From: Acaryochloris marina S15
GTDB lineage: Bacteria > Cyanobacteriota > Cyanobacteriia > Thermosynechococcales > Thermosynechococcaceae
Reading direction: 5' to 3'
Length of the DNA stretch: 32,000 nucleotides
Assembly (NCBI RefSeq): GCF_018336915.1
Contig: NZ_CP064924.1
Location: 120,001 to 152,000 of the forward strand
Below, piece by piece: positions 4,588-31,087 of the stretch. The translations under genes were made by a program, and so were the position numbers. Numbering within the stretch: position 1 is the first letter of the stretch; every line of letters begins with the position of its first letter. The notes below the pieces were generated by a model. That model did not search any database. It had not been told where the DNA came from and worked only from the letters and a program-made list of their open reading frames with translations.

Positions 4588-4652
4588 GAAAAATTACTCA
4601 ACATGACTGAATAAAACTGATCAAGATACTTCTGGTCAAAGGGAAAATCATC

Positions 4653-9657: not shown

Positions 9658-9729
9658 CTTGGTAATCAAGCTCATTTCAAGCTCATGCGATCTGATTTGG
9701 CAAATATTATCACAGGCATCTTGTAGAAA

Positions 9730-13350: not shown

Positions 13351-14133
13351 GTGAGTGATGTCAATATGGCGAAATGCCGAATAATAGCAATATTCAATCA
13401 AGCCGGAGGCGTGGGTAAAACTACTATCACAATGAATCTTGGATATCACCTTGCTACTCATTCCAAAAAGGTTCTCCTAGTGGATATGGATCCACAGGCT
13501 TCCTTGACCAATTTTATGGGCTTAGAGGTAACTGAACTTAAAACAACAATATATGACGCACTAATGGCTGAAGATGTCGTGGACATTGAAGTATATTCCA
13601 ATATACATGGAATGGATCTAGCTCCTTCCAACATCAATTTATCTAATGCGGAACAAGAATTAGTGCTAGCTGAGCAACGTGAAATTAGACTGAAGGAACC
13701 GCTTTCAAAATTACAGGGTGATTACGATTTCATTTTGATTGATTGCCCTCCAAGTCTAGGGATCCTTAGTTATATCAGCTTAGTTGCTGCTACTGATGTT
13801 CTTGTTCCAATCCAAACACAGTTTAAATCTTTAATGGGAACTGATTTCCTATTGAGTACAGTCAGTAAGGTTCAAAAAAGACTGAATAAGAATTTGAAGT
13901 TTGCTGGATTTTGGCCAACTATGTATTCTGCTGGCAACGTTTTGGATAACCGGACACTTGAGACAATTACTGAGCAACTATCCCAAATTGCAACAATTTT
14001 TACTCCACTCCCTCGTGCTACTGCACTTGCAGAAGCATCTGAATATGGTCTCCCTTTAGCTCTCGCACCAAAAAAGAATAAACAGATTCTCCAAATATTT
14101 GATGAAGTGTCAACACTTATTGAAGATCTATAG
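13351..14133 (+). CDS. parA: ParA/Soj-type partition ATPase
   Basis: The deviant Walker A reads IAIFNQAGGVGKTTITMNLG, followed by LLVDMDPQASLT and ILIDCPPSLG. The start may be ATG 13366 rather than GTG 13351. Confidence 0.92.
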   Translation: MSDVNMAKCRIIAIFNQAGGVGKTTITMNLGYHLATHSKKVLLVDMDPQASLTNFMGLEVTELKTTIYDALMAEDVVDIEVYSNIHGMDLAPSNINLSNAEQELVLAEQREIRLKEPLSKLQGDYDFILIDCPPSLGILSYISLVAATDVLVPIQTQFKSLMGTDFLLSTVSKVQKRLNKNLKFAGFWPTMYSAGNVLDNRTLETITEQLSQIATIFTPLPRATALAEASEYGLPLALAPKKNKQILQIFDEVSTLIEDL

Positions 14134-15072
14134 ATGAACCGTCAAAAGCATCCTCCGGCCAAACGATCCATGCTGAATAACGTTTCTTTATTCACTGATG
14201 ATGACGATCCATCAGTGAAATCAGATCAATTGCTTATTAGTAAAATTAGCTTGCCCTCTGAACAACCACGTCGATATTTTGACGTAAAAAAGATGGATCA
14301 GCTATGCCAGTCAATCAAAAAACATGGGATTCTAGAAAATCTAATTGTTCGACCTTCTCCTAAGAGGGCAGATCGGTATGAACTTATTGCAGGTGAAAGA
14401 CGATACAGAGCTGCGAAAAAAGTTGGACTTAAAGAAGTACCAGTAAAGATACTTACGATAGACGATGAACAAGCTCTTCAAATAGCACTAGTTGAAAATC
14501 TTCAGAGAGAGGATCTCAACCCAGTAGAAGAGACTGAAAGCATCTTGCAACTACTTTCAATTCATCTAGACAAGCCAATTCCAGAGACTGTTTCGCTTCT
14601 TCATCGAATGCTAGATGAGGTTAAAGGTAAAGTTCCCCATAACGTTATGGGGAACAACGTAGTTGAGGCTGTGGAAGAGTTATTTACAGGTCTAGGACGC
14701 ATGGGATGGAAATCCTTTGTAGTCAACCGACTCCCTTTATTAAAACTCCCCTCAGAAATTCTTGAAGCATTGAGAGGGGGCAAGCTTGCTTATACAAAAG
14801 CGATAGCCATTTCCCGAGTCAAGGATGAGCAGGCCAGATCGAATGTATTGCATGAGTCAATTGAGAAGAATCTCTCTCTCTCAGAGATCAAAGCAATCAT
14901 CAATGGATTAAAATCGTCAGCGAACAAAAAAGTTCCAAAGACTGTTCAAAAATTTTACGATCGAGTATCTATAGTCACAACCAGACTCAAGAAATCCCAG
15001 GCTTGGACTGATAAGAATAAGCGGAAGCAAGCTGAATTGCTTCTAAAAGAATTAGAAAGTTTAGCTGAGTAA
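14134..15072 (+). CDS. parB: ParB/Spo0J-family partition protein
   Basis: The ParB N-terminal motifs are ENLIVRP...YELIAGERRYRAAKKVGLKEVPV and ALVENLQREDLNPVEE. The start codon directly abuts the parA stop (tagATG). Confidence 0.9.
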   Translation: MNRQKHPPAKRSMLNNVSLFTDDDDPSVKSDQLLISKISLPSEQPRRYFDVKKMDQLCQSIKKHGILENLIVRPSPKRADRYELIAGERRYRAAKKVGLKEVPVKILTIDDEQALQIALVENLQREDLNPVEETESILQLLSIHLDKPIPETVSLLHRMLDEVKGKVPHNVMGNNVVEAVEELFTGLGRMGWKSFVVNRLPLLKLPSEILEALRGGKLAYTKAIAISRVKDEQARSNVLHESIEKNLSLSEIKAIINGLKSSANKKVPKTVQKFYDRVSIVTTRLKKSQAWTDKNKRKQAELLLKELESLAE

Positions 15073-15520: not shown

Positions 15521-18500
15521 ATGTCGCAGCAAGACGACCTTGCCGAATTGTTCGCGGCTGAGTTCTTGGCGGGCAAAGCCTACGCTTCCATCGTAGAAGC
15601 CCGAAACCAGGCATCTCAGTTGCTGAATCAACCCGTGCATCCTGGCAGTCCCCTAGCAAAACTGGTGGATGAGTCAGTTGAAGCGGGGTTAGTTCGTGCT
15701 GCAAGGACGATCATCGGCCACTCTGAAGATCCTCTGAAAACATACACAGATCTAATCGACCTCACTGATCGCCAGCCCAGGCTAGCAGTCCGATCATCAA
15801 CTAGCGTCAAACAGCAGGCATACTCGACCCCGCTCCCCCTCGCCTATCTTGCGGCTAACCTCGCAGGAATTACGGCTGAGTCCTCTGTATATGAACCGAG
15901 TGCTGGGCATGGGGCATTAGTCCTGAATGCTACTCCTGAGAACTGTACAGTCAACGAACTGAACCCAGACCGGGCAGCAGATCTTAGACGGCAGGGTTTT
16001 ACCGTTACGGAGCAGGATGCCTCCACCTACTTGCCAGAGCAGCTCCATGACGTTGTGATTGCCAACCCTCCCTATGGTCGCATTTGGGGAGACGACAAAA
16101 GGGCTAAGCACTTTAAGACACCTGGCAATTCACGAGGCACTAGCCAGATTGATCAGGCGATTTCACTCCAGGCACTCCAAGTCATGAAGCCTGATGGTCG
16201 AGGGGTTTTGCTTTTGGGAGGCAAACCGGAAACAGACCCAGGGGAGAGAGCTGAAGCCTACAACACTATAGAAAGTCGGGGGTTCTTCTATGCGTTGTAT
16301 CAGCAGTACAACGTTACCCAGCACATCACGGTTGCTAGAGACTTGTACAAGAAACAGGGGGCACACTGGCCGCTGGACTTGATTGTAATTGAGGGAAGGG
16401 GGAAATCACAGCTACCTCTCCCCGCAGTGGAACCGCCTAAAATCTATGAATCATTTGAGGAATTGCGAGGACTATTAAATGACTCAATCCAGGCGACTAC
16501 CCAGCTACCAAGATTACCTGAAGTTCACAAAGGTCTGGATGCCCAAGGCACAGGGGGACCAGGCAATATTCTTGGTGAGAGTGCCAACAGATCTAGAGTC
16601 GATGGATCTGAGAGATTACCTGGAGTTGATGAACTGTCGGATGGAATGGATGTTCGAGAGTTGGATGAAGGACTTTGGGGAGACTCAGGAGGAACTTCAC
16701 CAGATGCTAACCAACACATTATTTCAACTGAATCCGGTCCAGAGTCCACCCATGCTTTACGAGGGGGGAGGAGAGACCAAAGAATTGATCCCAGTATGGG
16801 CGATGGCATATCAGTGGGGAGCCAGCCTCCTAGAATTCAACGAAACTTGGATGAATTGGTTCCTGCTGACCAATCCAGAAGTGGACTTCCCAGTGGATCT
16901 GACACTGCCTCCACCCATGTCCCAGGAGTCCTTGATGGCGAAGCACGACGAAGTGACAATCGATCAATTTCTGATGGAATTGAGAGCAGAATTCAAGTAA
17001 ACGATACCTTCATTGAGGATAGTGACATGGCAGCAGAGTTCAATACTGCTTATGTTCCCCGCAGCAAAGGCCGTAGCCCTAACACATTGATTCCTACTAA
17101 CATGGCTGTTTCTGCTCAGCAAGCATTAGATCGCTTCGAGCAAGAGCATGGAGATATCGACGAGTTTGTAATGGATCGCTTGGGATATGACTCCAAGGGA
17201 CAAATGTATGATGTCCTTTACGCCGAGCAAATTGACTCTCTCGCCCTGGCCTTTGACCAAAAAGACAAGGGCAAAATTTTCCTTAATGGTGACCAAACGG
17301 GAAACGGTAAAGGACGATTCGGAGCAGCCAATATTATTGATGCCCAGCGACAGGGCTATATTCCCATCTTTGTTACCCAGAAACCCAACCTCTATGCCTC
17401 CATGATCCAGGACTTGGCTGATATCGGCAGGCCAGGTTTTTCGCCTTTCATGACAGATTCCGAGTTAGATTTGCATCTTGAAGATGGTAGAACCTTAAGA
17501 ACCTCTGGACTCAAGGATCAAGAAAACGAGATGCATCGCCTCACCCAAATCGGACTAGGGGGATATGATGCAATTTTCACGTCTTACAACCAGCTTCAAA
17601 CAATTAGCAAAAAAGAACCCTATAGACGGCAGTTTCTACGAGCATTAGCAAGTCGGGCAGTGTTTATTTTTGATGAAGCTCACGAGGCAGGCGGTGGTTC
17701 ATCAAGTCAGAGTTGGAAGAGTAGTAATGCTGCACCTAATCGTGCTGAATTTGTGCGAGAGCTGGTTGATGCTTCGGCAGGTACTGTCTTCATGTCTGCA
17801 ACCGCTACCAAGAATCCAGCGGTCATGGATCTCTACGCGAGACGAACCGATGCCATTCATGCCGTTAACAGCATGGATAATCTAGAGAATACGCTTAAGG
17901 CTGGCGGCATCCCACTTCAGCAAATGATGGCAACTCAGTTTGTTAGCTCTGGGAATATGCTTCGCCGCGAGAGAACGTTCGAGAATATTAGCTTTAGTGC
18001 TAAGACCGTTCCTGTAGATCACGGGATTGCAGATAACATTGCCGCAATTATGCGAGGGATTGATCGGTTTGATCGAGCCAAGAGTAAAGCAATGGAGGAG
18101 CTTAACAAAGAAGTCAGAAAAGAAGCCAAATCAGCTAGCGAAGATAATGCAATCGGAAAATCCGGTGCATCTTCATTAAATTTCACTTCGTTGATGCACA
18201 ACGCCATTGACCAAGGGCTGCTCTCCCAAAAAGCAGAGGCGACTGTTCAAGAAGCTATTGCTGCACTGAAGCGAGGTGAGAAACCATTAATCGCTGTTGC
18301 CAATACAATGAATTCCTTTATTGCAGACTATGCAAAAGATAGGGAGATCAAAACTGGCGATGCAATTAATGTGACGTTTGGGGATGTATTAGAGCGATAC
18401 TTAACTCGCTCCAAAGATGTTCAAATCACTGATTATCAAGGCATCTCTGATACTCGCCCTATGACGGAAGCAGAGCTAGGAGTCGAAGCAGTTGAAGCAT

Positions 18501-21500
18501 ACCAAGAAGTACATGAGCTAATCGCTGACTCTGATTTCTCTTCCATTCCTCTCAGTTCCATTGACTACATGAAATATCGCCTTTCTCAAGAGGGCTATAC
18601 CGTCGATGAGATTACGGGACGAAAAAGCATTATCAATTATCAGGGAGGTGAACTAATCTATGGCCTGCGCTCAAATAGAGAGGTTAAGCCCCAGGCCAAG
18701 ATTGATGTGGTAAATCGCTTTAACGGTGGTGAATTAGATGTCGTAATCCTCAACCGCTCAGGGGCAACAGGTATCAGTCTCCATGCTTCAGAACGGTTTG
18801 CGGACCAACGCCCAAGGCACATGATCGTGGCCCAAGCAGAGCGTGATGTCAACCAAGTCTTTCAGATGTTAGGACGTGCAAATCGCTTTGGACAAGTCGT
18901 GGAACCCAAATTCACTTTGGTGATGGCCGATGTCCCCGCCGAGAAGAGACTCGGAGCCATGCTTGCTAAAAAGATGGCATCTTTGAATGCTAATACTACT
19001 GCCGCACGAGATTCAGATCTGAGCATTGGGAACGTCACGGATTTTGTCAATACCGCTGGAGAGGAGGTGGTTACAGAACTACTGGAAGAACACCCCGAAA
19101 TCGATGCTATGTTGTCCTATCCAAGTCAGGGAAGCGTTGGTGGGACTGATTTCCCTCTTATTAGTAGAACAACAGGCCGCATCCCCCTCTTACCCATCAA
19201 GCAACAAGCAGAACTGTACGACCTGATCGAAACCGAAACCACTGCCCTCATCCAACAGAAAGAAGCGATGGGCGAGAACGTCTTGGAGGCAGACAAGTTG
19301 GACCTCGATGCCCGCACAATTGCCAAGATGGAAGTTGTCCCAGCAGACGCCGCGATCAAGAGCGAGTTCACCGGGCCTGTCAATCTAGAAGTCGTCAATG
19401 CAAAAGTCACGACCAAGCCCCCGATGCAATTGGGAATCATCAACGATGTCCGTGAGAACTTGGGTCAGTCTAGGGTTAAGACGGTGGACGACCATGATTT
19501 TGATGCAATTGAAGACCAGGCCAAGGAGCAGAACCGAGGCTTAAGGAATCAGGTTGAGAATCGATTGAAAACCTATAGTCAGAAAGCAATGGGGGAGGCA
19601 AAAACCCCAGAAGCAGCAAGCCACTTAGAGACAAAATTCGACAAACAAATGGGGCATTTCCAATCGCTCACCAATCGCTTTCGGATTGGCAGCACCGTTC
19701 AGCTTTCTTCAGCAGAAGGCAAGGTTTCCTATGGGGTAATCGCCAACATTGCCGAGAAAGCCAAACCTCTGGGAAGTCCCGCAGCACTGACGAACTGGAA
19801 GATGCAGATCATCACTACTGAAGGCAAAAATATCTCTGTTCCTTTCTCAAAAATCAACTCTGGTAAACCTTCCGCAGTTAGCATCATGCCCCAAGGGAAA
19901 ACCTGGAGAGGAGAGAGCATTTATGAAGATTTTGATAGCAGGCAACAGAATCAGCGCACGGAAATGCAGGTCTTCACTGGCAATCTGATCAAAGCGTATG
20001 AGGAGAATCCTGAAGGCAAGTTCATTAACTTCACCACCAATCAAGGCCAGGTGCGCCAAGGGCTGATCATGCCCGACGACTTCGATATCACTCAGCAGCT
20101 CCGGGAACGTCCCGTGATATTTGAGGAACCCTATCAGGTCAAAGCATTCCTGACAGAGGTGACCAAGAATCTGGGTGTAGTCCATGACAACCCAGAGAAG
20201 AACCTGGCAATCAAGGCCGATGCATCAGCGAAATTGCGCGGCACCCCCATCGAGCATTTTGTGTTGACAGTGCCCAGCTCTACCCGTGTCGGCGGCACGT
20301 TTTTCTTGAATGAAGACTTGCTAGATGCTGCCCAGAGTGAGTTCTTCTCTGTCGCTCATCGGATGGAGATGCATGTTGCCCCTGAGAATCTGGAGGCAGC
20401 GTTGAAGGTGATCATGAAAGACGAGGGCATTCAGATCGCGGCCTTCGACTTCAAGGACATGGCACGGGATTACTTGGGTCAGATGCTGCCGACGATGGAG
20501 CAGATCGAGGAAAACCAATTCGAGCAGCAGGCCAACTTCGTACCTTACGTTGAGCCAACGAAGGGAACCGCAGCCCAGCTTGATATGCTGCTCCAGTCTG
20601 ATGCTGTAGAGCCGAGTGAAATCCCGCAAGTTGAAGCTGTTCAATCTGCACCGGACCAGGACACTACCCAGCCCACCCAGGACAACACCAAGCAGATTGC
20701 CCCACCCGCAAAGCAGGCAGGCAAGGCAGAGCAGTTTGTGGCCCAGTTCCTACATGAGGGGGGATTGGCCCAGGAAGTTCTGAAGGGTGATGATTTCCAC
20801 TTCAAGATCAAGAATGGACCCTATGAACCTCTGGTGGTGGAGCAGCATTCTGACCAGCTTTACCTGACTCACTACTATGAGCAGAATGGGGACTTATGTC
20901 TAGATTCTGAAATGGTCTTTGGAATTGATGGGCAAGGGAAGCTCAATCTTGAAGAGACAGCAGTTCAAAATCCATTTACTGGAGGGGAGTTGCGAGAACT
21001 GGATCGGGAGTTTGGGGGGCTTTTTGCCCAGAACATCGTCAATCAGGGCTTTGCACAAGCAGCTCTAGAGCAGTTGCCTGAGCTATTAAAGGAGCGAGAG
21101 GCAGAGCAGGTTGATGCACCTGAACCTGAAGTTCCAGAATCCGTTATCAAAAAAGTAGATGGTGCAATTGCATCCATCCAGTCATTTAATGAAGCCGTGG
21201 AGGCTGGTCGTTACCTGGATCAGCAGCATGGCGGCAATGGACGATACGAGTATGAAACGTTCCAGAAAAGATCAGTCACTTTCCCCAAAGAAACAATTTC
21301 CAAGTTTCGAGAAATGTGCCCGAAGAATGGGGTCGATGCAGAAAAAGTCTTAAAAGAGTTGGGGTATGTACCACCACTGGAGATGACCAATGCTGCTAAA
21401 GAATGGCTTAGAGAACCAGACAAAACCCAAACAATGGAGTCACAACAGACTGTTGCCGAGAATATCGAGCAGTCACCGCCAGAGACAGTTGTAGATTCGG

Positions 21501-21916
21501 ATATTCAAGAAGTCGCAGCAGAGAAGCCACCGAAGACACCTAGCCAGCCCACAGCAAAAGCGCAGCAGCCTCAGCAGGAAACACCGACCCAGCAAACAGA
21601 AGCACCCAAGCCAAAGCCCAAACCCCAGGCTAAACCAGAGGACTGGGCAATCTACAACTCAGCTTTGAAGCGGGGCCATCCATACCAGGCTAGAGCGAAG
21701 GATCGAGTAGCGGCTTATCAGGGAGGAGTACCGCTCGACACACGGGCGAGTATCGCGTTAGGCAAAGATTTTAAGGAGTTTACGAAGGAGCTGAATTCAA
21801 TTCGGGACTGGTATGGAGCAGCTAAACAATTAGATAGGAAAGCTCCTTACTTAGATCGTATCGCTAAGGTAGGCCAGATAGATCAGAAAATGGTGTCTGA
21901 GACAGCAAAGGTCTGA
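15521..21916 (+). CDS. Giant N6-adenine DNA methyltransferase + strawberry-notch/SNF2-like helicase fusion protein. Its 3' end is replaced by an IS insertion.
   Basis: The MTase part has motif I VYEPSAGHGALV and motif IV VVIANPPYG (~16058-16080). The helicase part has a P-loop LNGDQTGNGKGR (~17284), DExH FIFDEAHEAGG (~17664), and C-terminal lobe motifs VVILNRSGATGISLHA and VFQMLGRANRFGQV. This is the strawberry-notch pattern. The last 13 codons (QIDQKMVSETAKV*) are encoded by the IS left end, which starts at 21875. Confidence 0.9.
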   Translation: MSQQDDLAELFAAEFLAGKAYASIVEARNQASQLLNQPVHPGSPLAKLVDESVEAGLVRAARTIIGHSEDPLKTYTDLIDLTDRQPRLAVRSSTSVKQQAYSTPLPLAYLAANLAGITAESSVYEPSAGHGALVLNATPENCTVNELNPDRAADLRRQGFTVTEQDASTYLPEQLHDVVIANPPYGRIWGDDKRAKHFKTPGNSRGTSQIDQAISLQALQVMKPDGRGVLLLGGKPETDPGERAEAYNTIESRGFFYALYQQYNVTQHITVARDLYKKQGAHWPLDLIVIEGRGKSQLPLPAVEPPKIYESFEELRGLLNDSIQATTQLPRLPEVHKGLDAQGTGGPGNILGESANRSRVDGSERLPGVDELSDGMDVRELDEGLWGDSGGTSPDANQHIISTESGPESTHALRGGRRDQRIDPSMGDGISVGSQPPRIQRNLDELVPADQSRSGLPSGSDTASTHVPGVLDGEARRSDNRSISDGIESRIQVNDTFIEDSDMAAEFNTAYVPRSKGRSPNTLIPTNMAVSAQQALDRFEQEHGDIDEFVMDRLGYDSKGQMYDVLYAEQIDSLALAFDQKDKGKIFLNGDQTGNGKGRFGAANIIDAQRQGYIPIFVTQKPNLYASMIQDLADIGRPGFSPFMTDSELDLHLEDGRTLRTSGLKDQENEMHRLTQIGLGGYDAIFTSYNQLQTISKKEPYRRQFLRALASRAVFIFDEAHEAGGGSSSQSWKSSNAAPNRAEFVRELVDASAGTVFMSATATKNPAVMDLYARRTDAIHAVNSMDNLENTLKAGGIPLQQMMATQFVSSGNMLRRERTFENISFSAKTVPVDHGIADNIAAIMRGIDRFDRAKSKAMEELNKEVRKEAKSASEDNAIGKSGASSLNFTSLMHNAIDQGLLSQKAEATVQEAIAALKRGEKPLIAVANTMNSFIADYAKDREIKTGDAINVTFGDVLERYLTRSKDVQITDYQGISDTRPMTEAELGVEAVEAYQEVHELIADSDFSSIPLSSIDYMKYRLSQEGYTVDEITGRKSIINYQGGELIYGLRSNREVKPQAKIDVVNRFNGGELDVVILNRSGATGISLHASERFADQRPRHMIVAQAERDVNQVFQMLGRANRFGQVVEPKFTLVMADVPAEKRLGAMLAKKMASLNANTTAARDSDLSIGNVTDFVNTAGEEVVTELLEEHPEIDAMLSYPSQGSVGGTDFPLISRTTGRIPLLPIKQQAELYDLIETETTALIQQKEAMGENVLEADKLDLDARTIAKMEVVPADAAIKSEFTGPVNLEVVNAKVTTKPPMQLGIINDVRENLGQSRVKTVDDHDFDAIEDQAKEQNRGLRNQVENRLKTYSQKAMGEAKTPEAASHLETKFDKQMGHFQSLTNRFRIGSTVQLSSAEGKVSYGVIANIAEKAKPLGSPAALTNWKMQIITTEGKNISVPFSKINSGKPSAVSIMPQGKTWRGESIYEDFDSRQQNQRTEMQVFTGNLIKAYEENPEGKFINFTTNQGQVRQGLIMPDDFDITQQLRERPVIFEEPYQVKAFLTEVTKNLGVVHDNPEKNLAIKADASAKLRGTPIEHFVLTVPSSTRVGGTFFLNEDLLDAAQSEFFSVAHRMEMHVAPENLEAALKVIMKDEGIQIAAFDFKDMARDYLGQMLPTMEQIEENQFEQQANFVPYVEPTKGTAAQLDMLLQSDAVEPSEIPQVEAVQSAPDQDTTQPTQDNTKQIAPPAKQAGKAEQFVAQFLHEGGLAQEVLKGDDFHFKIKNGPYEPLVVEQHSDQLYLTHYYEQNGDLCLDSEMVFGIDGQGKLNLEETAVQNPFTGGELRELDREFGGLFAQNIVNQGFAQAALEQLPELLKEREAEQVDAPEPEVPESVIKKVDGAIASIQSFNEAVEAGRYLDQQHGGNGRYEYETFQKRSVTFPKETISKFREMCPKNGVDAEKVLKELGYVPPLEMTNAAKEWLREPDKTQTMESQQTVAENIEQSPPETVVDSDIQEVAAEKPPKTPSQPTAKAQQPQQETPTQQTEAPKPKPKPQAKPEDWAIYNSALKRGHPYQARAKDRVAAYQGGVPLDTRASIALGKDFKEFTKELNSIRDWYGAAKQLDRKAPYLDRIAKVGQIDQKMVSETAKV

Positions 21917-21957
21917 AAAGCTTATACTTCAGTGACTCTGAGCGTAGCGAATTAGTC

Positions 21958-22494
21958 ATGACTGAAAAACAAGCCCATCAAAATCGTACGGCAATTGTTC
22001 ATTTTGGTGCAACCAAACAAGACTATTTAGACCTGGTGCAAGCAGACAATCGCCGCCCCTTAATCGAGTATCTGCAAGCGCCCCTGACAGCCCAACTCTC
22101 TCCAGAACGTCATAAGCCCTGCTGCCGTGATACCAGTCGTTATACGCTCCATGCTTTACGAGAGCGCCAAGTTCAAGGGTGGTTAGGACCAGTCGAGACA
22201 ATCCCTATCTGTCGAGTGCGCTGCCAAAGCTGTCGAGCCGTTTTCACGGTTTTGCCCAGCTTTATCCTGCGCTATCGTCGTCAAGATGCCGACTGCTTGG
22301 GGAAACTGCTGGAGTTGAATTTAGGCATGGGACTGAGCAACAGAGAGACGGCTACGATTTATAGCTGGCAGGGAGCAGAGCGAGGTTGGCAACCCGGTTG
22401 GGTTTGGAGTCTGGTGCAGTGGTTGGGGAACTTGATGCCTGTGTATTTACTTTTACTGCGTCTGGGACTCACCCCCCGCCCATTTACTCAGTGA
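21958..22494 (+). CDS. Copy A transposase ORF1 (Cys-rich / HTH N-terminal part)
   Basis: 178 aa, reading ...HKPCCRD...CRVRCQSCRAVFTVLPSFILRYRRQDADCLGKLLELNLGMGLSNRETATIY.... It ends at TGA 22492-22494, overlapping the +1-frame ORF2. Confidence 0.65.
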   Translation: MTEKQAHQNRTAIVHFGATKQDYLDLVQADNRRPLIEYLQAPLTAQLSPERHKPCCRDTSRYTLHALRERQVQGWLGPVETIPICRVRCQSCRAVFTVLPSFILRYRRQDADCLGKLLELNLGMGLSNRETATIYSWQGAERGWQPGWVWSLVQWLGNLMPVYLLLLRLGLTPRPFTQ

Positions 22495-22829
22495 CGAGAA
22501 GTTTGCCAGTTTAGAGAGGGAGCAAATCTACTTGTTTTTGGTGGCTCAAGCTGAATTGATTTGGTATACCGAATTGATGAAGTCCACGGATGAGGATGCT
22601 TTTCAAGTCACCATCCATCGGTTTCTGACGGAAATGGACGCCGCCGCACAAGCCACAGGTCACTTAGATCAAGCACAACTGTATGTCCCCGCATCGGTGA
22701 CCACCGACGGCTGGGTCGCTTCTCAAAATGCTTGGATATCTGAGGTTGGCCTCGACTTGATAGAGTGCAAACTCCATGGCCAAAAACGGGTGAGTGCCAC
22801 GTTTGATGATTTCTCAAAGACCCACCCTG
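22436..22829 (+). pseudogene. Copy A transposase ORF2, 5' part (cut by insertion of copy B)
   Basis: The frame is open from 22436 (...HLLSDEKFASLEREQIYLFLVAQAELIWY...SKTHP). It then runs into the copy B IRL and stops. The remainder resumes at 24279. Confidence 0.75.
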
Positions 22830-22912
22830 CAGATAGATCAGAAAATGGTGTCTGAGACAGCAAAGGTCTGAAAAGCTTATACTTCAGTGACTCTGAGCGT
22901 AGCGAATTAGTC

Positions 22913-23448
22913 ATGACTGAAAAACAAGCCCATCAAAATCGTACGGCAATTGTTCATTTTGGTGCAACCAAACAAGACTATTTAGACCTGGTGCAAGCAG
23001 ACAATCGCCGCCCTTAATCGAGTATCTGCAAGCGCCCCTGACAGCCCAACTCTCTCCAGAACGTCATAAGCCCTGCTGCCGTGATACCAGTCGTTATACG
23101 CTCCATGCTTTACGAGAGCGCCAAGTTCAAGGGTGGTTAGGACCAGTCGAGACAATCCCTATCTGTCGAGTGCGCTGCCAAAGCTGTCGAGCCGTTTTCA
23201 CGGTTTTGCCCAGCTTTATCCTGCGCTATCGTCGTCAAGATGCCGACTGCTTGGGGAAACTGCTGGAGTTGAATTTAGGCATGGGACTGAGCAACAGAGA
23301 GACGGCTACGATTTATAGCTGGCAGGGAGCAGAGCGAGGTTGGCAACCCGGTTGGGTTTGGAGTCTGGTGCAGTGGTTGGGGAACTTGATGCCTGTGTAT
23401 TTACTTTTACTGCGTCTGGGACTCACCCCCCGCCCATTTACTCAGTGA
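22913..23448 (+). pseudogene. Copy B transposase ORF1, inactivated by a 1-bp deletion
   Basis: It is identical to copy A ORF1 except cgccgccctta versus cgccgcccctta. This gives ...DNRRP then TAA at 23015-23017. The ORF track only recovers the distal part (23170-23448). Confidence 0.85.
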
Positions 23449-24253
23449 CGAGAAGTTTGCCAGTTTAGAGAGGGAGCAAATCTACTTGTTTTTGGTGGCT
23501 CAAGCTGAATTGATTTGGTATACCGAATTGATGAAGTCCACGGATGAGGATGCTTTTCAAGTCACCATCCATCGGTTTCTGACGGAAATGGACGCCGCCG
23601 CACAAGCCACAGGTCACTTAGATCAAGCACAACTGTATGTCCCCGCATCGGTGACCACCGACGGCTGGGTCGCTTCTCAAAATGCTTGGATATCTGAGGT
23701 TGGCCTCGACTTGATAGAGTGCAAACTCCATGGCCAAAAACGGGTGAGTGCCACGTTTGATGATTTCTCAAAGACCCACCCTGATTGGCTACCTGACCAA
23801 CTCCAACAACTCAAAGATGATTTCGATTCAGTTCTAAATGCTTCTTCACTAGCGTCTTATTCCCAAAGGGTGCGACGCAATCGTGAACGCTATGGCCATG
23901 AACCGACGTTGCTCAAGCGATTGGATATTCTCAAGCACAAACGCTTTCTGTTTACGAATCACCTAAAACATAAAGACGCTTCCGCCTATTCTGCACCTTT
24001 AGATCGCTCCATGCGATTCTTGGACAAGAAGCTCATAAAATTTGGGCAATATCGAGCAGAGGATGCCATTAATCCCATGGTGAATGCCTGGGCGATTGTG
24101 AATAATCTACGACAGTTTCTCCCTGATGCGAAAAAGGCGGGGCAATCTTTAGCGGAACATTTCGGAGTTCAGCTCAAAGGTATGCCTTGGATGGAGGCTC
24201 TTAACCTATGCACCATGGGAAGTCTGGATATCATGCTTGCGCCTACTTTCTAG
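23390..24253 (+). CDS. Copy B transposase ORF2 (putative catalytic part, intact reading frame)
   Basis: The frame is open from 23390, and the first canonical start is TTG 23486. It contains SDEKF, SVTTDGWVASQNAW and a conserved-looking C-terminus, ...PLDRSMRFLDKKL...NAWAIVNNLRQFLP...AEHFG. The stop TAG 24251-24253 abuts the IRR. I could not assign a family by eye. Confidence 0.6.
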   Translation, partial: CLCIYFYCVWDSPPAHLLSDEKFASLEREQIYLFLVAQAELIWYTELMKSTDEDAFQVTIHRFLTEMDAAAQATGHLDQAQLYVPASVTTDGWVASQNAWISEVGLDLIECKLHGQKRVSATFDDFSKTHPDWLPDQLQQLKDDFDSVLNASSLASYSQRVRRNRERYGHEPTLLKRLDILKHKRFLFTNHLKHKDASAYSAPLDRSMRFLDKKLIKFGQYRAEDAINPMVNAWAIVNNLRQFLPDAKKAGQSLAEHFGVQLKGMPWMEALNLCTMGSLDIMLAPTF

Positions 24254-24278
24254 CAGACACCATTTTCTGATCTATCTG

Positions 24279-24755
24279 CACCCTGATTGGCTACCTGACC
24301 AACTCCAACAACTCAAAGATGATTTCGATTCAGTTCTAAATGCTTCTTCACTAGCGTCTTATTCCCAAAGGGTGCGACGCAATCGTGAACGCTATGGCCA
24401 TGAACCGACGTTGCTCAAGCGATTGGATATTCTCAAGCACAAACGCTTTCTGTTTACGAATCACCTAAAACATAAAGACGCTTCCGCCTATTCTGCACCT
24501 TTAGATCGCTCCATGCGATTCTTGGACAAGAAGCTCATAAAATTTGGGCAATATCGAGCAGAGGATGCCATTAATCCCATGGTGAATGCCTGGGCGATTG
24601 TGAATAATCTACGACAGTTTCTCCCTGATGCGAAAAAGGCGGGGCAATCTTTAGCGGAACATTTCGGAGTTCAGCTCAAAGGTATGCCTTGGATGGAGGC
24701 TCTTAACCTATGCACCATGGGAAGTCTGGATATCATGCTTGCGCCTACTTTCTAG
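24279..24755 (+). pseudogene. Copy A transposase ORF2, 3' part
   Basis: It is identical in translation to the C-terminal 157 aa of copy B ORF2 (HPDWLPDQLQQLKDDF...MLAPTF*). ORF-track entry 24237-24755 is read-through from the copy B IRR. Confidence 0.8.
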
Positions 24756-24788
24756 CAGACACCATTTTCTGATCTATCTGAGGTAGGC

Positions 24789-25157
24789 AATGAATATAAG
24801 CAGGGCAAACCGCTCTCCGATAGAGCCAGAACCACTATGAAGCAAGACATCAATCAATCTTCCTACAATCGATTTTCAGAAGGATTGAGTCAGGAGAACC
24901 CAGAGGTATTTCTAACCAGGCTGGCCGCGAATGCTTCAAAGGCAGGGCTGACGCCACCTAAAGTTATGGGTACTTTGTCTGTTGCTTCAGAAGTACAATC
25001 TATTCGCTACCAACAGGGAGAACAGGCTAGCCTCAAGTATTCCCGAAAGATCATGATGAAGGGATTAAAACTTAAAAACCAGGAGCGACCAAAAACCATC
25101 GTTCCACAACAACAACGAACCCAAGAAGTTAATCAAAACCGGGGAATTGGAAGATGA
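24789..25157 (+). pseudogene. Displaced 3' end (122 codons) of the giant MTase-helicase ORF
   Basis: Removing 21875-24788 (IS plus one TSD copy) joins ...DRIAKVG to NEYKQGKPLSDRARTTMKQDINQSS... in frame with no stop. 24789 is in phase with both 15521 and the ORF at 24837-25157. Confidence 0.85.
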
Positions 25158-25420
25158 ACGACGATCTCGAACTATCACCAGAAATTATTGAAGGCGCAAA
25201 AATCATTCGGTTGGGTCAATCATTGATCCAGCTAAAAAATGCAATGGAACACGCTGAAATAAGAGCAGGAGAATCTATCACGAATGCTGGGGCGCTTGAT
25301 AGAGCAGAGATTGTGACTGAGATTCAATCACTCCTCATCAATATCAAATCTATACGGGAAAAGCTGAAAAACCCCCAAATCCAGGAATGGACTGCGGCAG
25401 AGGAGGAGATTCCATTTTGA
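25154..25420 (+). CDS. Hypothetical 88-aa protein
   Basis: Its ATG overlaps the stop of the preceding reading frame (aGATGAac, a 4-nt ATGA overlap at 25154-25157). I recognised no motif. Confidence 0.45.
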   Translation: MNDDLELSPEIIEGAKIIRLGQSLIQLKNAMEHAEIRAGESITNAGALDRAEIVTEIQSLLINIKSIREKLKNPQIQEWTAAEEEIPF

Positions 25421-25655
25421 TGGAATGCTTGTCAACACTGGAAACACTAGTACATTGGCTTCCCTATCCTCCACCTCCTCTGATAACCCGCTATCTTGTT
25501 TCGAAAAGTTGGCTAGTTTCTTTTTAGGAGGATCAGTTCACACAAGATATCAAGTTCTTCTTCTTAAGATTGTCTATAGGAATATTTATATTTTTTATTC
25601 GTAGTAGCTTTATATTTCTAGTATTCTGACTGAGATGAATTCTATATAAAAAAGC

Positions 25656-28178
25656 ATGCGACTAAAAAATGTCTACATCCGTTTTTATAAATCATTCAAC
25701 TTTGATTACCTTAGAAAAAATCACCCAAAGGCTAAACCTAGCCCTTGGGATTTACTTGAAGATGGCCGATGGTATCCATATGTTCGAATTCCTATTGAAA
25801 AAGAAATTACAGCCGTCGTAGGAGCAAATGAGTCTGGTAAATCTCAGTTATTATCAGCCATTGAAAAAGGAGCAAATGTCAAAAATATTGATAGGTCAAA
25901 AGATTTTTGTCGATACTCTCAATTTTATACAATTGATAGAGACAAACTAAATTATCCTTCTATCGGTTTTGAATGGACCGATCTATCAGAATCAGAAAAA
26001 AATACGATAAATGAAATTGTATCTTATGAATTAAATAAAGATAAATCAAGCAAAGAAGATTCTGAGTCTAAAAAAGCAAATAAAAAAACTAAAGGCACTG
26101 AAGAATCTAGCATCGAAGCAGAGATATTACTCGACACCTTTAAAATTTTCTATACCAATATTGGAGATTATACAATATATATAAATACAGAAGACGAATG
26201 TATAAAACTGGATGAAAAGAGCATAGATAAATACAAGAATATACTACCTAATATTTTCCGAATTGATTCAGATATTGCTTTGCCAGAAAGCATACCTATT
26301 AGATGTTTGATCGAACAGGATCTAAAAGACAAATTATCTGACTTACCAACAGTCGATAGAAGGAGTAGATCAAGTTTTTTTCAAGGTATTTTTAATCTTT
26401 TTGATAATGATTCAGAAGATTTAAAAATTGAAGATGTTGAAAAAATAAAATCAGATCTTTCAAGCGATCTAACCCTTGAGAAAATCAACTTAGTTAAGTC
26501 ACTAATTTTTGATGTAGCTAATATTGATCTTAAATCAATCGAAGAATTGTCAGAAGCACTAAAAGAAGGAAATCAGGAAGGTGTAGTTAATGGGATTACA
26601 CAAACAATTACTGATAATCTGAGAAAAACATTGAATTTCCCAAGATGGTGGGAACAAGATAGAGAGTTTAATATTAAAGTAGATGCTAGAGATTATGATC
26701 TAGTTTTTACTATTATCGATAGAACACAAACAAACTATTCATTTGATGAAAGAAGTAATGGTTTAAAATATTTTTTGAGCTATTATATCCAGTACCGTGC
26801 TTATAAACCAAAAAATCTAAATAGCACTGAAATACTATTAATGGATGAGCCTGATGCATATCTCTCTAGTCAGGCTCAACAAGATCTTCTAAAAATATTT
26901 GAAGGATTTGCTAATCCTGAAGATCAACAAAATCCAGTCCAAGTTATCTATGTTACACATTCTCCATTCTTAATAAACAAAAATCATGCTGAAAGAATTC
27001 GTGTACTCGATAAAGGGGCTGGCGATGAAGGTGCCAGAGTTGTTAAAGATGCTAGCAAAAATCATTATGAGCCTTTAAGATCTGCATTTGGTGCTTTTGT
27101 AGGTGAAACTACCTTTATTGGGAACTGCAATTTATTTGTGGAAGGACTAGCAGATCAAATTCTTATTGCTGGAGCTTCAAATCATATTAGAAGACTTGAG
27201 AAAATATCAAATCTAGAAATTCTAGATCTCAATAAAATTACAATTGTACCTGCTGGCTCTGCTAGTCATATACCTTATCTAGTTTACTTAGCAAGAGGCC
27301 GAGACGTTGAGCAACCCCCTATTATTGTTCTCTTAGACAGTGACGCATCCGGTAATGATGCAATGAAAACTTTGAGTAGAGGGAAGGACAATGGTAATAA
27401 TAAACCGCTGAATAAAGAATTTATTCTGGAAATTAGAGATTTAGGCAGTAAAAAATCTATAGTTCCAACACATGAAAACTTAACTGAGATAGAAGATTTA
27501 GTTCCACTATCAATCTACGAACAATCAATTCAGCTTTATCTCAAAGAATTTTGTGGAGTCAATCAAGATAAAATAGAATCCATTTGCTCCAAAAAACTTA
27601 AGAATTCATTGGATTCAGAGAGGGGTACATTTAATAGTTTAGATAATTATGTAAGATCTAATTCTAAAGAGGAGTACCATTTGGAAAAAGTTGGCCTTGC
27701 GCGTAGTGTAATCTCAGTAGTTAAGTCAATTTATGATGAACACAATAGCTCAGGTAACACTAGTTATCCTGAGAAACTAGCCTCCTTTGAAAATAACTTT
27801 AAAGTACTCTTTGGTAAATTAAATTCTATGCAAGCTAAAGCCGAGTATTCTTGCTCGCAAGCTAAAGTTTTCGAAAGATTGAAGCGAGTAAAAAATCGTT
27901 TTTTTCAAGATAAAAATATTGATTCAAAAATCAAAAGAGAATCAGTAGTAAGAATGCTAGTTGAGATGGAAAACTCATTAGATGACAGTTTTGAAAGCAA
28001 CTATATTAGTTTGGCAATAAGTGAATTGCGCGAAACATACAAACTAAACATCGATTTACATGAGTTCATCTCAGATATTGAAAGACTTCAACTTGATATC
28101 AATAAGGTAATTTATGCTGGCAAGCGAGAAAGTCAAACATTTACTACTGAAGATCTTGAACCAGAGAGAGCATCTTAA
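25656..28178 (+). CDS. OLD-family-like ABC ATPase + TOPRIM nuclease fusion protein (840 aa)
   Basis: The ATPase motifs are Walker A AVVGANESGKSQLL (~25815), a signature-like ERSNGLKYFLS, Walker B EILLMDEPDAYLS (~26835) and an H-loop IYVTHSPF. The TOPRIM motifs are NLFVEGLADQILI (~27135), IIVLLDSDASGNDA (~27325) and TEIEDLVP. The gene is strongly AT-rich. Confidence 0.8.
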   Translation: MRLKNVYIRFYKSFNFDYLRKNHPKAKPSPWDLLEDGRWYPYVRIPIEKEITAVVGANESGKSQLLSAIEKGANVKNIDRSKDFCRYSQFYTIDRDKLNYPSIGFEWTDLSESEKNTINEIVSYELNKDKSSKEDSESKKANKKTKGTEESSIEAEILLDTFKIFYTNIGDYTIYINTEDECIKLDEKSIDKYKNILPNIFRIDSDIALPESIPIRCLIEQDLKDKLSDLPTVDRRSRSSFFQGIFNLFDNDSEDLKIEDVEKIKSDLSSDLTLEKINLVKSLIFDVANIDLKSIEELSEALKEGNQEGVVNGITQTITDNLRKTLNFPRWWEQDREFNIKVDARDYDLVFTIIDRTQTNYSFDERSNGLKYFLSYYIQYRAYKPKNLNSTEILLMDEPDAYLSSQAQQDLLKIFEGFANPEDQQNPVQVIYVTHSPFLINKNHAERIRVLDKGAGDEGARVVKDASKNHYEPLRSAFGAFVGETTFIGNCNLFVEGLADQILIAGASNHIRRLEKISNLEILDLNKITIVPAGSASHIPYLVYLARGRDVEQPPIIVLLDSDASGNDAMKTLSRGKDNGNNKPLNKEFILEIRDLGSKKSIVPTHENLTEIEDLVPLSIYEQSIQLYLKEFCGVNQDKIESICSKKLKNSLDSERGTFNSLDNYVRSNSKEEYHLEKVGLARSVISVVKSIYDEHNSSGNTSYPEKLASFENNFKVLFGKLNSMQAKAEYSCSQAKVFERLKRVKNRFFQDKNIDSKIKRESVVRMLVEMENSLDDSFESNYISLAISELRETYKLNIDLHEFISDIERLQLDINKVIYAGKRESQTFTTEDLEPERAS

Positions 28179-28287
28179 CGTTACAAAAAATTTTTCAATT
28201 CAATCAATACACTTCAGCAGAATAACAGCAGCCCCCCAGCCACCCAGCCCCCAAGTCCCCTCAGAGGCCAGGTACATCAGTCCTTGA

Positions 28288-28944
28288 CTAAGACTTTGCG
28301 GCCTCTTCCCTCATCATGCTAGACAGCGATGACTCAACTTTCTTCTTAGCAGTTCGACGCTTGCCCCCACCACTAGCCACAACTGGAGTTGGGTCTTGAG
28401 GAACGGCTAGCTCATCATCGAGCGGATCAGGGTCGAAGACCATAACAGAGGATTCCTCGACTTCGCTGATAGGCTTCTCCACCTCAGCCACAGATGCAAC
28501 CTCCTCCAGGTCTGCCAAAACATCAGGAGCCTGATCCTCAGCCTCGACCTCAGAAGTATCCTCAACCGGGCTGTCGGCCAGGAATGCCTGGGTCTGGACC
28601 TTGAACCAATCGATAGCTTTATCATGCAGTTCCCAGTGGGCATCAATCCGGTCTGTGAGCTGGGTCTTGATAAGCGTTTGGATGAACAACGTCTCTTGCC
28701 GACAACCTTTGCGGAAGACAGCCACAGCATTTCCTTTGACCTCATCAAAGATGGGGCCATGCTTCTGGCTCACTTTGGACAGGCCCCAAGAGCAGAGGAT
28801 AGTGAAGTTTTTCCAGCCCTGGATTTCCTTGTGAATGACGAACAGGAAGACTTGGCTTGCAGCCATGCCAACTTTTTTAGCGGCAGAGTCAATCACTTCG
28901 GTGGAGGCAGATTGTTCGATTTTGACGTTGGTAATCAGTTTCAT
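28288..28944 (-). CDS. Hypothetical protein with a ~120-aa N-terminal domain, a long acidic tract and a basic tail
   Basis: I prefer the start at ATG 28944 (MKLITNVKIEQ..., aagga 9-13 nt upstream) over the track start at 29070. The C-terminal half reads DSPVEDTSEVEAEDQAPDVLADLEEVASVAEVEKPISEVEESSVMVFDPDPLDDELAVPQDP, followed by GGGKRRTAKKKVE. Confidence 0.55.
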   Translation of the reverse strand: MKLITNVKIEQSASTEVIDSAAKKVGMAASQVFLFVIHKEIQGWKNFTILCSWGLSKVSQKHGPIFDEVKGNAVAVFRKGCRQETLFIQTLIKTQLTDRIDAHWELHDKAIDWFKVQTQAFLADSPVEDTSEVEAEDQAPDVLADLEEVASVAEVEKPISEVEESSVMVFDPDPLDDELAVPQDPTPVVASGGGKRRTAKKKVESSLSSMMREEAAKS

Positions 28945-29261
28945 GAGTGTTGTCCTTTGAATAACGAATAGTGGATAGGCACGACTGGCATGTGCAATCG
29001 AGTCGGCCCTGTTGATATTGAGAAAACGGAAAGGGAGGTCTTTGCCTCTTGGGGAATATACCCCCAACAAAAATCAGGCTCGATGTGGAGCCGTGGGCGG
29101 GATGGATTTGGAGAAAAAACTTTGGGTGGGAATGCCCCACTTCCTAACCACCAGGGTAGCGTGGATGGCTTTGTGCTACAAGGATTGGGGGATTAGGGTT
29201 TCTGATCGGTGGCGGGAGGGAGACTAGGCTTTGCTGATGATTAGTGTGCTTGTGATGAGAA

Positions 29262-30298: not shown

Positions 30299-31087
30299 AT
30301 GGCTTATCCCCTTTCAGCCACTAAACTCATCACCTACCAGCAGTGCCCCAAAGCCTACAACTTCAGATATGAGCGGGGACTCTCTTCACCCTCTGCCTTC
30401 GGATCGCCTGCCTTTGGGATTGCCCTTCACAAAACACTCGCAGATATCTACAAAGACTGGAACTACGATTACCCCCTCCCTTCCCTGGATTGGTTTGCCG
30501 TTTGCTGGCAGCACCATACTGGAGATCTGAAACCAGCCCAGATTCATGAGGGGTGGATGGCCTTGCAGCTCTATTACGAGAAATACGTTGCCCCGCTACC
30601 CATGATTCGCAAACCTCTTGGAGTTGAAGGAAAGATCAAGGCCAGCTTCCAGGTGAATAATATCGAGTTTTCCATCACAGGCCGTTATGACCGCTTAGAC
30701 TACACCGATAATGGTCTAGAGCTGATTGACTATAAGACCAGCAAGACGATTGGCCCATCCGATGGCATCGATCTACAGCTTGGATTGTACTTTTTGATTC
30801 TGGAGCAGGTCTACCCAGAGGCACTGGAAACGCTGAGTTTAATATATCTACGGCAAGGTCAGAAAGTTACGTTTGATGTGACGCCTGACCATCACCAGCA
30901 GGTACGAAAGTTGATCGGAGACATCGCGGTAAAGCTTAGAGCAGATGATGAGTGGAAACCAGAAGTTGGTGGGCACTGCAACCACTGCGGGTATCAGAAG
31001 TACTGCCCTGCGAAGTCCAAGAAGCCAGAGCCATTACCGGAGGGGACGAGGGAGGCGAGGCAAGTTCAGCTGGTTTTAGGGATTTGA
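30299..31087 (+). CDS. PD-(D/E)XK nuclease, Cas4/AddB-like, with putative Fe-S cysteines
   Basis: It has LSATKLITYQQCPKAY (N-terminal Cys), GRYDRLD, ELIDYKTSK (D...ExK), QLGLYFLI (QxxxY) and a C-terminal CNHCGYQKYC (CxxCx5C). Confidence 0.8.
   Translation: MAYPLSATKLITYQQCPKAYNFRYERGLSSPSAFGSPAFGIALHKTLADIYKDWNYDYPLPSLDWFAVCWQHHTGDLKPAQIHEGWMALQLYYEKYVAPLPMIRKPLGVEGKIKASFQVNNIEFSITGRYDRLDYTDNGLELIDYKTSKTIGPSDGIDLQLGLYFLILEQVYPEALETLSLIYLRQGQKVTFDVTPDHHQQVRKLIGDIAVKLRADDEWKPEVGGHCNHCGYQKYCPAKSKKPEPLPEGTREARQVQLVLGI

Follow-up and report, generated by a model that had tools for sequence, protein, structure and literature searches.

A long-form OLD-family ATPase-Toprim gene of Acaryochloris marina S15, a candidate single-gene defence module

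This study concerns a single gene in a stretch of 32,000 nucleotides of the cyanobacterium Acaryochloris marina S15 (contig NZ_CP064924.1, positions 120,001 to 152,000), referred to here as the window, whose numbering is used throughout. The gene is an open reading frame (ORF) with an ATG start at 25656-28178 on the + strand and encodes a protein of 840 amino acids (aa), in which an ABC-type ATPase is followed by a Toprim nuclease core and, at the C-terminus, by a helical domain. Our results suggest that it encodes a horizontally acquired, stand-alone, long-form OLD nuclease, most likely serving as a single-gene module of defence or exclusion against phages or competing mobile DNA, a reading to which we assign a probability of roughly 0.6.

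An OLD-family ATPase-Toprim enzyme

The encoded protein is 100% identical to WP_212666574.1 / QUY45528.1 (Acaryochloris marina, from a contig of 309,759 bp), whose family bears in RefSeq merely the name 'AAA family ATPase'. An initial annotation, made from the letters of the DNA without database searches, had proposed this ORF and its length, and both are upheld by the ORF call and by an N-terminus that agrees with the consensus of the family. The parts of the gene, all on the + strand, are as follows.

25656-28178: OLD-family gene for an ABC-ATPase, Toprim and C-terminal helical domain (ORF, Pfam, 100% protein identity)
25656-25985: ABC-ATPase N-lobe, aa 1-110, with Walker A GANESGKS at aa 56-63 (25821-25844); K62 invariant
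25986-26660: domain inserted in the ATPase, aa ~111-335, where OLD proteins have their dimerisation domain (predicted secondary structure)
26016-26135: K/E/S-rich low-complexity insert, aa 121-160, lineage-specific and gapped in 55-87% of homologues
26661-26975: ABC-ATPase C-lobe, aa 336-440 (Pfam; invariant S367, G369, D397, E398 and H435)
26754-26771: signature-like SNGLKY, aa 367-372
26835-26855: Walker B LLMDEPD, aa 394-400
26952-26966: H-loop VTHSP, aa 433-437
26976-27113: ATPase-Toprim linker, aa 441-486, which aligns with Ts OLD
27114-27506: Toprim nuclease core, aa 487-617 (PF20469 in the family; register with Ts OLD), with FVEGLAD at aa 494-500, LLDSDASGND at aa 559-568 and EIEDLVP at aa 611-617
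27507-28145: all-helical C-terminal domain, aa ~618-830, about 225 aa, apparently exclusive to the family
27678-27704: invariant motif H-x-E-K678-V-G-x-A-R683

Every one of the Walker A, signature-like, Walker B, H-loop and Toprim motifs quoted in the initial annotation was located, and the key residues (K62, D397, E398, H435, E496, D500, D561, D563, E613 and D614) are invariant in an alignment of 54 homologues with a median length of 841 aa (range 802-939). The ATPase is matched well above the Pfam cut-offs by AAA_15 (E=6e-17; 62.8 bits, cut-off 32.1) and AAA_21 (E=1e-11; 45.8 bits, cut-off 27). The profile OLD-like_TOPRIM (PF20469) is matched at E<=0.01 by 48 of the 54 family members, the best at 8.5e-6, though the 840-aa sequence taken alone stays below threshold.

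Among proteins of solved structure, the sole significant relative by sequence is Ts OLD from Thermus scotoductus (6p74; E=2.6e-7), with an alignment that runs from the ATPase C-lobe and Walker B through the linker up to the DxD motif. In the register of a family profile, E496 corresponds to Ts E377 and D500 to Ts D381; in the sequence alignment, D561/D563 correspond to Ts D431/D433. With the roles of the Ts OLD residues as ligands of metal A and metal B taken from the published work (PMC7049728), E496 and D561/D563 would bind metal A, and D500 together with E611-x-E613(-D614) metal B. The residues E611-x-E613-D614 are invariant or nearly so; they are assigned by order and spacing, as Ts S478/E480 lie beyond the reach of the alignment.

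An AlphaFold2 model built on the 54 homologues (mean confidence, pLDDT, 75.2) finds as its best whole-model matches in the PDB GajA (8u7i_A, E=7e-9) and, second, the OLD protein of retron-Eco8 (9lpa_B), with Ts OLD also among the best; the ATPase heads of PtuA, SMC and Rad50 score similarly in this fold search. From the Pfam ATPase matches, the family-wide Toprim match, the alignment and register with Ts OLD and the OLD folds retrieved, we regard the identification of the protein as an OLD-family ATPase-Toprim enzyme as nearly certain.

Between Walker A and the signature motif the initial annotation had noted about 300 residues rich in K, E, D and N. The insertion is real and family-wide (277-301 aa) and corresponds to the inserted domain, which by analogy with Ts OLD may serve dimerisation (PMC7049728). 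The richness is not a feature of the family: the K/E/D/N fraction is 0.37 here and 0.24 in the family median, and it is accounted for by AT-rich codons and the lineage-specific insert at aa 121-160, being neither a family trait nor a functional signature.

Few stretches of the family are as strongly conserved as the linker between ATPase and Toprim (NKNHAERIRVLDKGAGDEGARVVKDASKNHYEPLRSAFGAFVGETTF), whose columns reach 88-90% identity, yet nowhere is the model less confident (pLDDT 34-51). Folding of the linker may depend on oligomerisation or on the binding of a ligand or nucleic acid.

A C-terminal domain private to the family

Beyond the Toprim core, the initial annotation had found some 220 residues without a recognisable motif and considered this extension unusual. 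The domain is indeed unmatched. At limits as loose as E<=10 it is matched by nothing in Pfam or PADLOC, its profiles retrieve from PDB sequences only coiled-coil noise, and the isolated model, searched with Foldseek, has no match in the PDB (best E=0.5) or among the viral predicted structures of BFVD (best E=0.35). What did not stand is its singularity: when 1.84 billion representative proteins were searched with a profile of the domain, about 390 clusters (50% identity) came back at E<=0.001, and the tail is the defining feature of that family rather than a peculiarity of the Acaryochloris gene. In the best 150 of the 390 matches the domain occupies positions ~580-830 of proteins of 770-940 aa, or lies in shorter sequences. 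All seven matches inspected, five of which are 242-462 aa long, belong to the same family and carry a Toprim tail before the domain, so that the short matches look like fragments. Within the same best 150 matches we saw no use of the domain as a mobile module of other architectures and, on these profile searches, it appears to be exclusive to the long-form ATPase-Toprim architecture.

The domain is modelled with high confidence, at a pLDDT of 87.7 on its own and mostly 83-95 in its blocks within the full model, and R744, F749, Y820 and Q827 join K678 and R683 as residues invariant in the 54 homologues. In Ts OLD a catalytic arginine, R487, lies 7 residues past the metal-B glutamate, while the Class 2 enzyme BpOLD draws the equivalent lysine, K562, which is 54 residues past E508, from a helical domain that stands apart at its C-terminus (PMC7049728). 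The long-form family has no conserved K or R at the Ts R487 position or elsewhere within ~25 residues after E613 (aa 614-~640); invariant basic residues do not follow until K678 and R683, with 65 aa separating E613 from K678. Because K678 and R683 are invariant, their spacing is like that of BpOLD and the Ts R487 position has no conserved basic residue, the proximal helical part may complete the active site, in which case the distal ~130 residues would be an addition specific to the family. This link to the Class 2 helical domain is drawn solely from the invariant residues and the spacing, since no GajA model matches once the ATPase is removed.

A split role, in which the proximal part (aa ~618-700) would donate the catalytic lysine or arginine and the distal part (aa ~700-830) would be regulatory, trigger-binding or engaged in oligomerisation, is a tentative proposal from sequence conservation. 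For the extension as a whole, supply of a proximal catalytic residue is a reading equally good as the sensor or regulator originally envisaged; a part for the distal helices in sensing a trigger or in restraining the enzyme is speculative.

Foreign composition and patchy distribution

The gene stands out from its surroundings as an AT-rich island.

25500-28200, no strand: low-G+C tract, 0.27-0.39 per 100 bp against 0.43-0.60 in the flanks, comprising the gene and ~155 bp upstream
25500-25655, + strand: AT-rich upstream region, on its composition a presumed promoter or leader

Its G+C content is 0.32, and 0.21 at third codon positions (GC3), compared with a G+C of 0.465 for the remainder of the window and a GC3 of 0.35-0.58 for the neighbouring genes; the leader upstream has a G+C of 0.345. 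In steps of 500 bp, values of 0.28-0.36 across 25501-28000 give way to 0.43-0.53 on both sides. The contrast that the initial annotation had perceived by eye, and from which it had suggested separate acquisition, is therefore present when computed, and the relatives speak for the same conclusion. The two closest, at loci L084 and L085, keep a G+C of ~0.32 amid flanks of 0.45-0.50 in unrelated contexts, and the A. marina sub-lineage as a whole retains ~0.32 across three unrelated contexts. Family-wide, the gene lies below its flanks in G+C at 73 of 75 loci, by a median of 6 points and by up to 20.

The protein search returned more than 100 full-length homologues of ~770-940 aa, with 43-65% identity and 93-100% coverage. 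Relatives occur in 202 of 185,579 species-representative genomes (~0.1%), spread over at least six phyla, including Cyanobacteria, Actinomycetota, Planctomycetota, Acidobacteriota, Verrucomicrobiota, Deinococcota and Proteobacteria. All loci returned are bacterial, the distribution is patchy, and identity to the Acaryochloris protein is similar across phyla. As the initial annotation had supposed, no characterised family spans the full 840 aa; nor does any specific model in PADLOC v2.0.0 match the long-form family.

Some smaller features of the gene and its relatives may be recorded here. A sigma-70-like site lies at 25564-25592 in the leader, where the number of such sites does not exceed the shuffle expectation; in the promoter and terminator scan as a whole, counts equalled that expectation. 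A 59-aa ORF at 25425-25604 is probably spurious. In the 5' end of the gene, over codons ~23-31 where the protein is poorly conserved, a G+C-rich, near-perfect hairpin at 25724-25749 (-14.5 kcal/mol, z=-2.4; 4-nt loop, stem of 10 pairs with a single mismatch inside) was flagged on the minus strand by the terminator scan. In the 60%-identical relative (L085, 7599-10136) the gene appears to be in two pieces, an AAA_15 fragment of 99 aa and a remainder of 711 aa, with an AbiEii gene immediately upstream; a frameshift, a pseudogene or an error of sequencing could each explain the break.

A single gene in variable neighbourhoods

We surveyed the neighbours of the family at 80 genome loci, taking ORFs of at least 80 aa within 5 kb. 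The largest neighbour cluster is found at 5 of the 80 loci, all close Nostoc relatives, and the contexts are variable, with no conserved housekeeping operon. A UvrD-like helicase or a reverse transcriptase neither adjoins the gene here nor is conserved over the 80 loci, and reverse transcriptases are missing from the commonest neighbour families listed below. The initial annotation had remarked on the absence of an adjacent helicase, HNH or DUF4435 gene, which the window ORFs confirm; the neighbouring ORFs also hold no reverse transcriptase domain, and 24000-29200 contains no Rfam RNA. A six-frame search of 1.2 kb on each side of the gene found no small conserved ORF or antitoxin, the sole clusters being the gene's own disordered tail, sense and antisense. 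The family is thus represented by a single gene with no conserved partner, and the stand-alone arrangement proposed at the outset holds.

A Pfam scan of the 124 nearest ORFs from 31 diverse loci yielded 176 families, of which the commonest were phage integrase (4), N6_N4 DNA methylase (3), helicase domains (3), ResIII (2) and PIN (2); STAND genes are also among the neighbours of the family. The two closest relatives (65% and 60% identity) each adjoin an AbiEii gene, and another member (P0007) lies near a methylase and a CHAT-TPR protein. Around a further member (P0005; L086, 952-18538) stand genes for GAF-Mrr_cat, a 623-aa SMC_N/AAA_15 ATPase, HATPase_c, MarR-like, SMODS, ORC/CDC6-like and PRTase-CE proteins, in what is apparently a dense defence island. 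The family behaves as a horizontally mobile accessory gene, often but not always in defence-type surroundings. For the Acaryochloris gene itself, we consider it very probable that it was acquired horizontally, separately from its flanks, and that it stands alone.

Placement among the OLD classes

The classes of the OLD family are defined by gene context (PMC10568477, PMC12392090), and a single gene without a conserved partner is assigned by this criterion to Class 1. Like the members of that class (P2 Old, Ts OLD 6P74, Vc OLD and E. coli YbjD), which are encoded by one gene without a partner and are often mobile, the Acaryochloris protein has an N-terminal ABC ATPase with an inserted domain, a linker, and a Toprim with the pattern E...DxD...E. 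Three Class 1 descriptors do not apply to it: a length of 500-600 aa, the lack of a helical domain at the C-terminus, and a catalytic Arg/Lys that lies in the loop past the metal-B Glu. It is ~250-300 aa longer than the length used in the definition (PMC12392090), and Ts OLD is without the ~225-aa helical domain (PMC7049728). The signature S367-x-G369 is invariant in the long-form family, whereas that of Class 1 is described as degenerate, and the long-form Toprim is too diverged for a profile match to solved OLDs.

Class 2 (BcGajA, 8SM3/8U7I; the C-terminal region of BpOLD, 6NK8) provides the best whole-model fold match and, like the long-form family, has a helical domain past Toprim, with a catalytic lysine (Bp K562) to whose spacing that of the invariant K678/R683 is comparable. 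It differs in its GajB/UvrD-like neighbour, of which there is none here, and in a far smaller helical domain, to which the isolated domain of the long-form family has no detectable similarity in sequence or fold. The helical domain of the long-form family is roughly three times the size of the Class 2 one. The Class 3 effector of retron-Eco8 (9LPA, ~740 aa) is likewise a long OLD protein and the second-best fold match; here there is neither a reverse transcriptase nor an msr/msd RNA nearby, and the isolated C-terminal domain does not match.

HEC-04, an Hma-embedded candidate, resembles the Acaryochloris protein in uniting an ABC ATPase and Toprim in a single polypeptide, a likeness of domain content; it is sufficient for phage defence, with both domains required (bioRxiv 10.1101/2024.01.29.577857). 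There is no strong PADLOC match to the HEC models, the best being HEC-01A (2.4e-7), in the ATPase part alone.

The most recent Class 1 phylogeny explicitly dropped proteins longer than 600 aa (PMC12392090). A RefSeq-wide OLD tree distinguishes 11 uncharacterised clades, U1-U11 (PMC12796447). Four family accessions and the term 'Acaryochloris' are not in its Dataset EV1, in which, to judge by entry names alone, a Micromonospora entry stands under U6, and Planctomycetota and Streptomyces are represented under U7 by one entry each (PMC12796447). The protein is accordingly a long-form variant of the OLD family and not something categorically new. It overturns nothing, since the diversity of the family and its unnamed clades are already recognised. 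That it represents a distinct, unnamed OLD class, combining Class 1 genetics with a Class 2-like completion of the active site and with distal helices as a built-in infection sensor or auto-inhibitor, is possible, but we hold it to be doubtful.

The plasmid surroundings

The window looks like plasmid backbone. It holds a partition locus, a GNAT gene, fragments of insertion sequences (IS), a Crp/Fnr regulator and a PD-(D/E)XK nuclease.

13351-15072: ParA/ParB partition genes

From ~28243 rightwards, the hypothetical protein, Crp/Fnr and PD-(D/E)XK genes have 77-89% identity with the Acaryochloris plasmids pREB4, pREB6 and pMB01. In pREB4 and pMB01 a response regulator and partition genes, and not the OLD gene, come before the same block; the stretch ~24782-28243 is absent from all Acaryochloris plasmids in PLSDB. 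A clean 'empty site' in the related plasmids was ruled out, as their left sides differ and the right flank alone is held in common. A discrete mobile element around the gene was ruled out as well: no flanking direct or inverted repeats occur above chance, there is no target-site duplication and there are no terminal inverted repeats, no tRNA gene lies in the window and no integrase adjoins the gene. Because only the right flank is common and the marks of an element are lacking, the gene lies at a point where synteny breaks, rather than within an insertion with clean boundaries.

On the 3' side the OLD gene is followed by a 260-aa hypothetical gene on the opposite strand. Directly upstream are two small ORFs on the same strand, 24837-25157 (106 aa) and 25154-25420 (88 aa), which overlap by 4 nt, are translationally coupled and end 235 bp before the OLD gene. 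The initial annotation had placed an anti-restriction-type plasmid gene immediately upstream; this was mistaken, since neither of these two ORFs matches Pfam or PHROG and the nearest candidate is a helicase gene 3.7 kb away, which is probably the one intended. That gene (15521-21916) encodes a 2131-aa protein with Sbno-like helicase domains (AAA_34, Helicase_C_4) and DUF6908, in which N6_Mtase (20.0 bits, cut-off 20.4) and ResIII remain below threshold. It is a giant helicase, presumably of the type found in conjugative elements, and possibly has an additional methylase role.

Between the helicase gene and the OLD gene lies duplicated, IS-like debris. The 100%-identical tandem duplications fall within 21875-24755, where 21875-22356 is repeated at 22830-23310 (spacing 954-955) and 23777-24076 at 24279-24578 (spacing 502), giving full and truncated copies of both a DUF6431-containing ORF (21958-22494) and a 255-aa ORF (23486-24253). 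They may have arisen when a gene pair associated with an IS was duplicated recently, or they may be artefacts of the assembly. Accessory cargo with no relation to the OLD gene lies at 8074-11463 and 3577-7463 and comprises an adjacent pair of paralogous genes for MscS-type mechanosensitive channels together with genes for a P-type cation ATPase and a complete sigma-70 factor. The PD-(D/E)XK / Cas4-like nuclease gene (30299-31087) adjoins the Crp/Fnr regulator on pREB4 too, and the Crp/Fnr block is not restricted to that plasmid but occurs on other Acaryochloris plasmids.

Proposed function and its alternatives

On balance we favour a role in defence or exclusion because of the mobility of the family, its patchy spread, the defence-type neighbours of relatives and the precedents for defence by a single gene. 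A lone ATPase-Toprim gene can defend, as is known from Vc OLD (PMC12392090), P2 Old (PMC12445682) and HEC-04 (bioRxiv 10.1101/2024.01.29.577857). DNA is nicked or cleaved by Vc OLD, Ts OLD and GajA (PMC12392090, PMC7049728), and tRNA is cleaved by P2 Old (PMC12445682). In the mechanism that we propose, ATPase heads paired through the inserted domain would bind and hydrolyse ATP, and this step would gate or license the two-metal Toprim nuclease once an infection cue has been sensed. The nuclease would then nick or cut DNA, like Vc OLD, Ts OLD and GajA, or tRNA, like P2 Old and AriB, and the cleavage would stop the invader or the infected cell. The proximal C-terminal part would complete the active site as the Class 2 helical domain does, while the distal helices may regulate, bind the trigger or oligomerise.

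Several observations weigh against the reading of a mobile OLD nuclease with a defensive role. Ordinary metabolic enzymes neighbour many loci, and the kept synteny of the Nostoc group suggests vertical inheritance. No full-length homologue was found in the phage collection, and PLSDB holds just 3 full-length plasmid homologues (one in Deinococcus and two in Rhodococcus). On the 840-aa protein alone, PF20469 reaches 18.2 bits against a cut-off of 23.2 (E=0.0036); a profile of the Toprim and C-terminal domains finds no solved OLD by sequence, and no GajA model in PADLOC matches once the ATPase is removed (aa 471-840). Finally, an OLD class with a non-defence, cell-cycle role is known in Cran1 (PMC12796447).

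The alternative best served by these points is a housekeeping or genome-maintenance ATPase-nickase, Cran1-like or RecF/Rad50-like, acting in plasmid maintenance or repair. The precedent of Cran1, the SMC and Rad50 heads among the fold matches, the metabolic neighbours of several loci, the syntenic Nostoc subgroup and the ParA/ParB genes in the same plasmid region are all in its favour. Cran1 (Class 5), however, is an archaeal (Sulfolobales), vertically inherited and essential cell-cycle factor, whereas the long-form family is bacterial, patchy and compositionally foreign. Relatives scattered over phyla in so small a fraction of species genomes, a G+C below the flanks at nearly all loci, the want of a conserved operon, the absence of the gene from other Acaryochloris plasmids with the same flank and the defence-type neighbours of several relatives lead us to consider such a role unlikely.

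It is more improbable still that the gene forms a multi-gene cassette with the two small upstream ORFs, as a regulator or antitoxin pair for example. Their overlap, common strand and proximity to the OLD gene would suit such a unit, as would the fact that ~24782-28243 as a whole is missing from the related plasmids and that the pair and the OLD gene occur together on an independent assembly contig. Against this, neither small ORF has a counterpart at the 80 family loci, beside the closest relatives or in related Acaryochloris plasmids, both are without a Pfam or PHROG match, and their G+C of 0.43-0.44 is that of the plasmid, unlike the 0.32 of the OLD gene.

A single-chain fusion of the PARIS proteins AriA and AriB, which the initial annotation had offered as an option, is very improbable. 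Such a fusion would join the AriA ATPase to the DUF4435-type Toprim of AriB, sense anti-restriction proteins and cleave tRNA. PARIS does pair an AAA_15/AAA_21-type ABC ATPase with a Toprim nuclease, is triggered by phage anti-restriction proteins and cleaves tRNA, and is itself counted as OLD Class 4 (PMC12392090); moreover, ~840 aa is close to the total of AriA and AriB, and the top PADLOC matches are labelled AriA (1.6e-19 and 7.4e-14). These matches are generic, however, since the lengths and coordinates of the AriA models equal those of Pfam AAA_15 and AAA_21. PARIS consists of two genes, and neither DUF4435 nor AriB is detectable in the Acaryochloris protein: aa 471-840 have no PADLOC match at E<=10, and their sole Pfam signal is OLD-like_TOPRIM. 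The junction from ATPase to Toprim aligns continuously with the single-chain Ts OLD, and the top 50 fold matches include nothing from PARIS.

Least probable of all is an OLD of the retron type (Class 3) or the Gabija type (Class 2) that has lost its partner or has it elsewhere, for which GajA and the similarly long retron-Eco8 OLD as best fold matches and several PADLOC GajA models matching at ~1e-13 can be cited, but which lacks an adjoining UvrD-like helicase or reverse transcriptase here and at the 80 loci, as well as an Rfam RNA, and whose GajA matches vanish without the ATPase.

Conclusions

For Acaryochloris, the gene is an accessory one, specific to the strain and situated where a large plasmid is prone to recombine. 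Within a major immune family, single-gene OLDs form the branch that is least understood, and reviews ask whether they defend alone and how they are regulated (PMC10568477). With ~390 clusters in at least six phyla, no specific PADLOC model and a length outside the 500-600 aa filter (PMC12392090), the long-form family may have been overlooked. Its private C-terminal domain, confidently folded in the models and bearing invariant basic residues, offers a mutable handle on how a partner-free OLD is completed or controlled. If the long-form proteins were indeed a distinct class, they would be self-contained immune proteins that both sense and cut, a class that Class 1 surveys would have missed because proteins longer than 600 aa were discarded.

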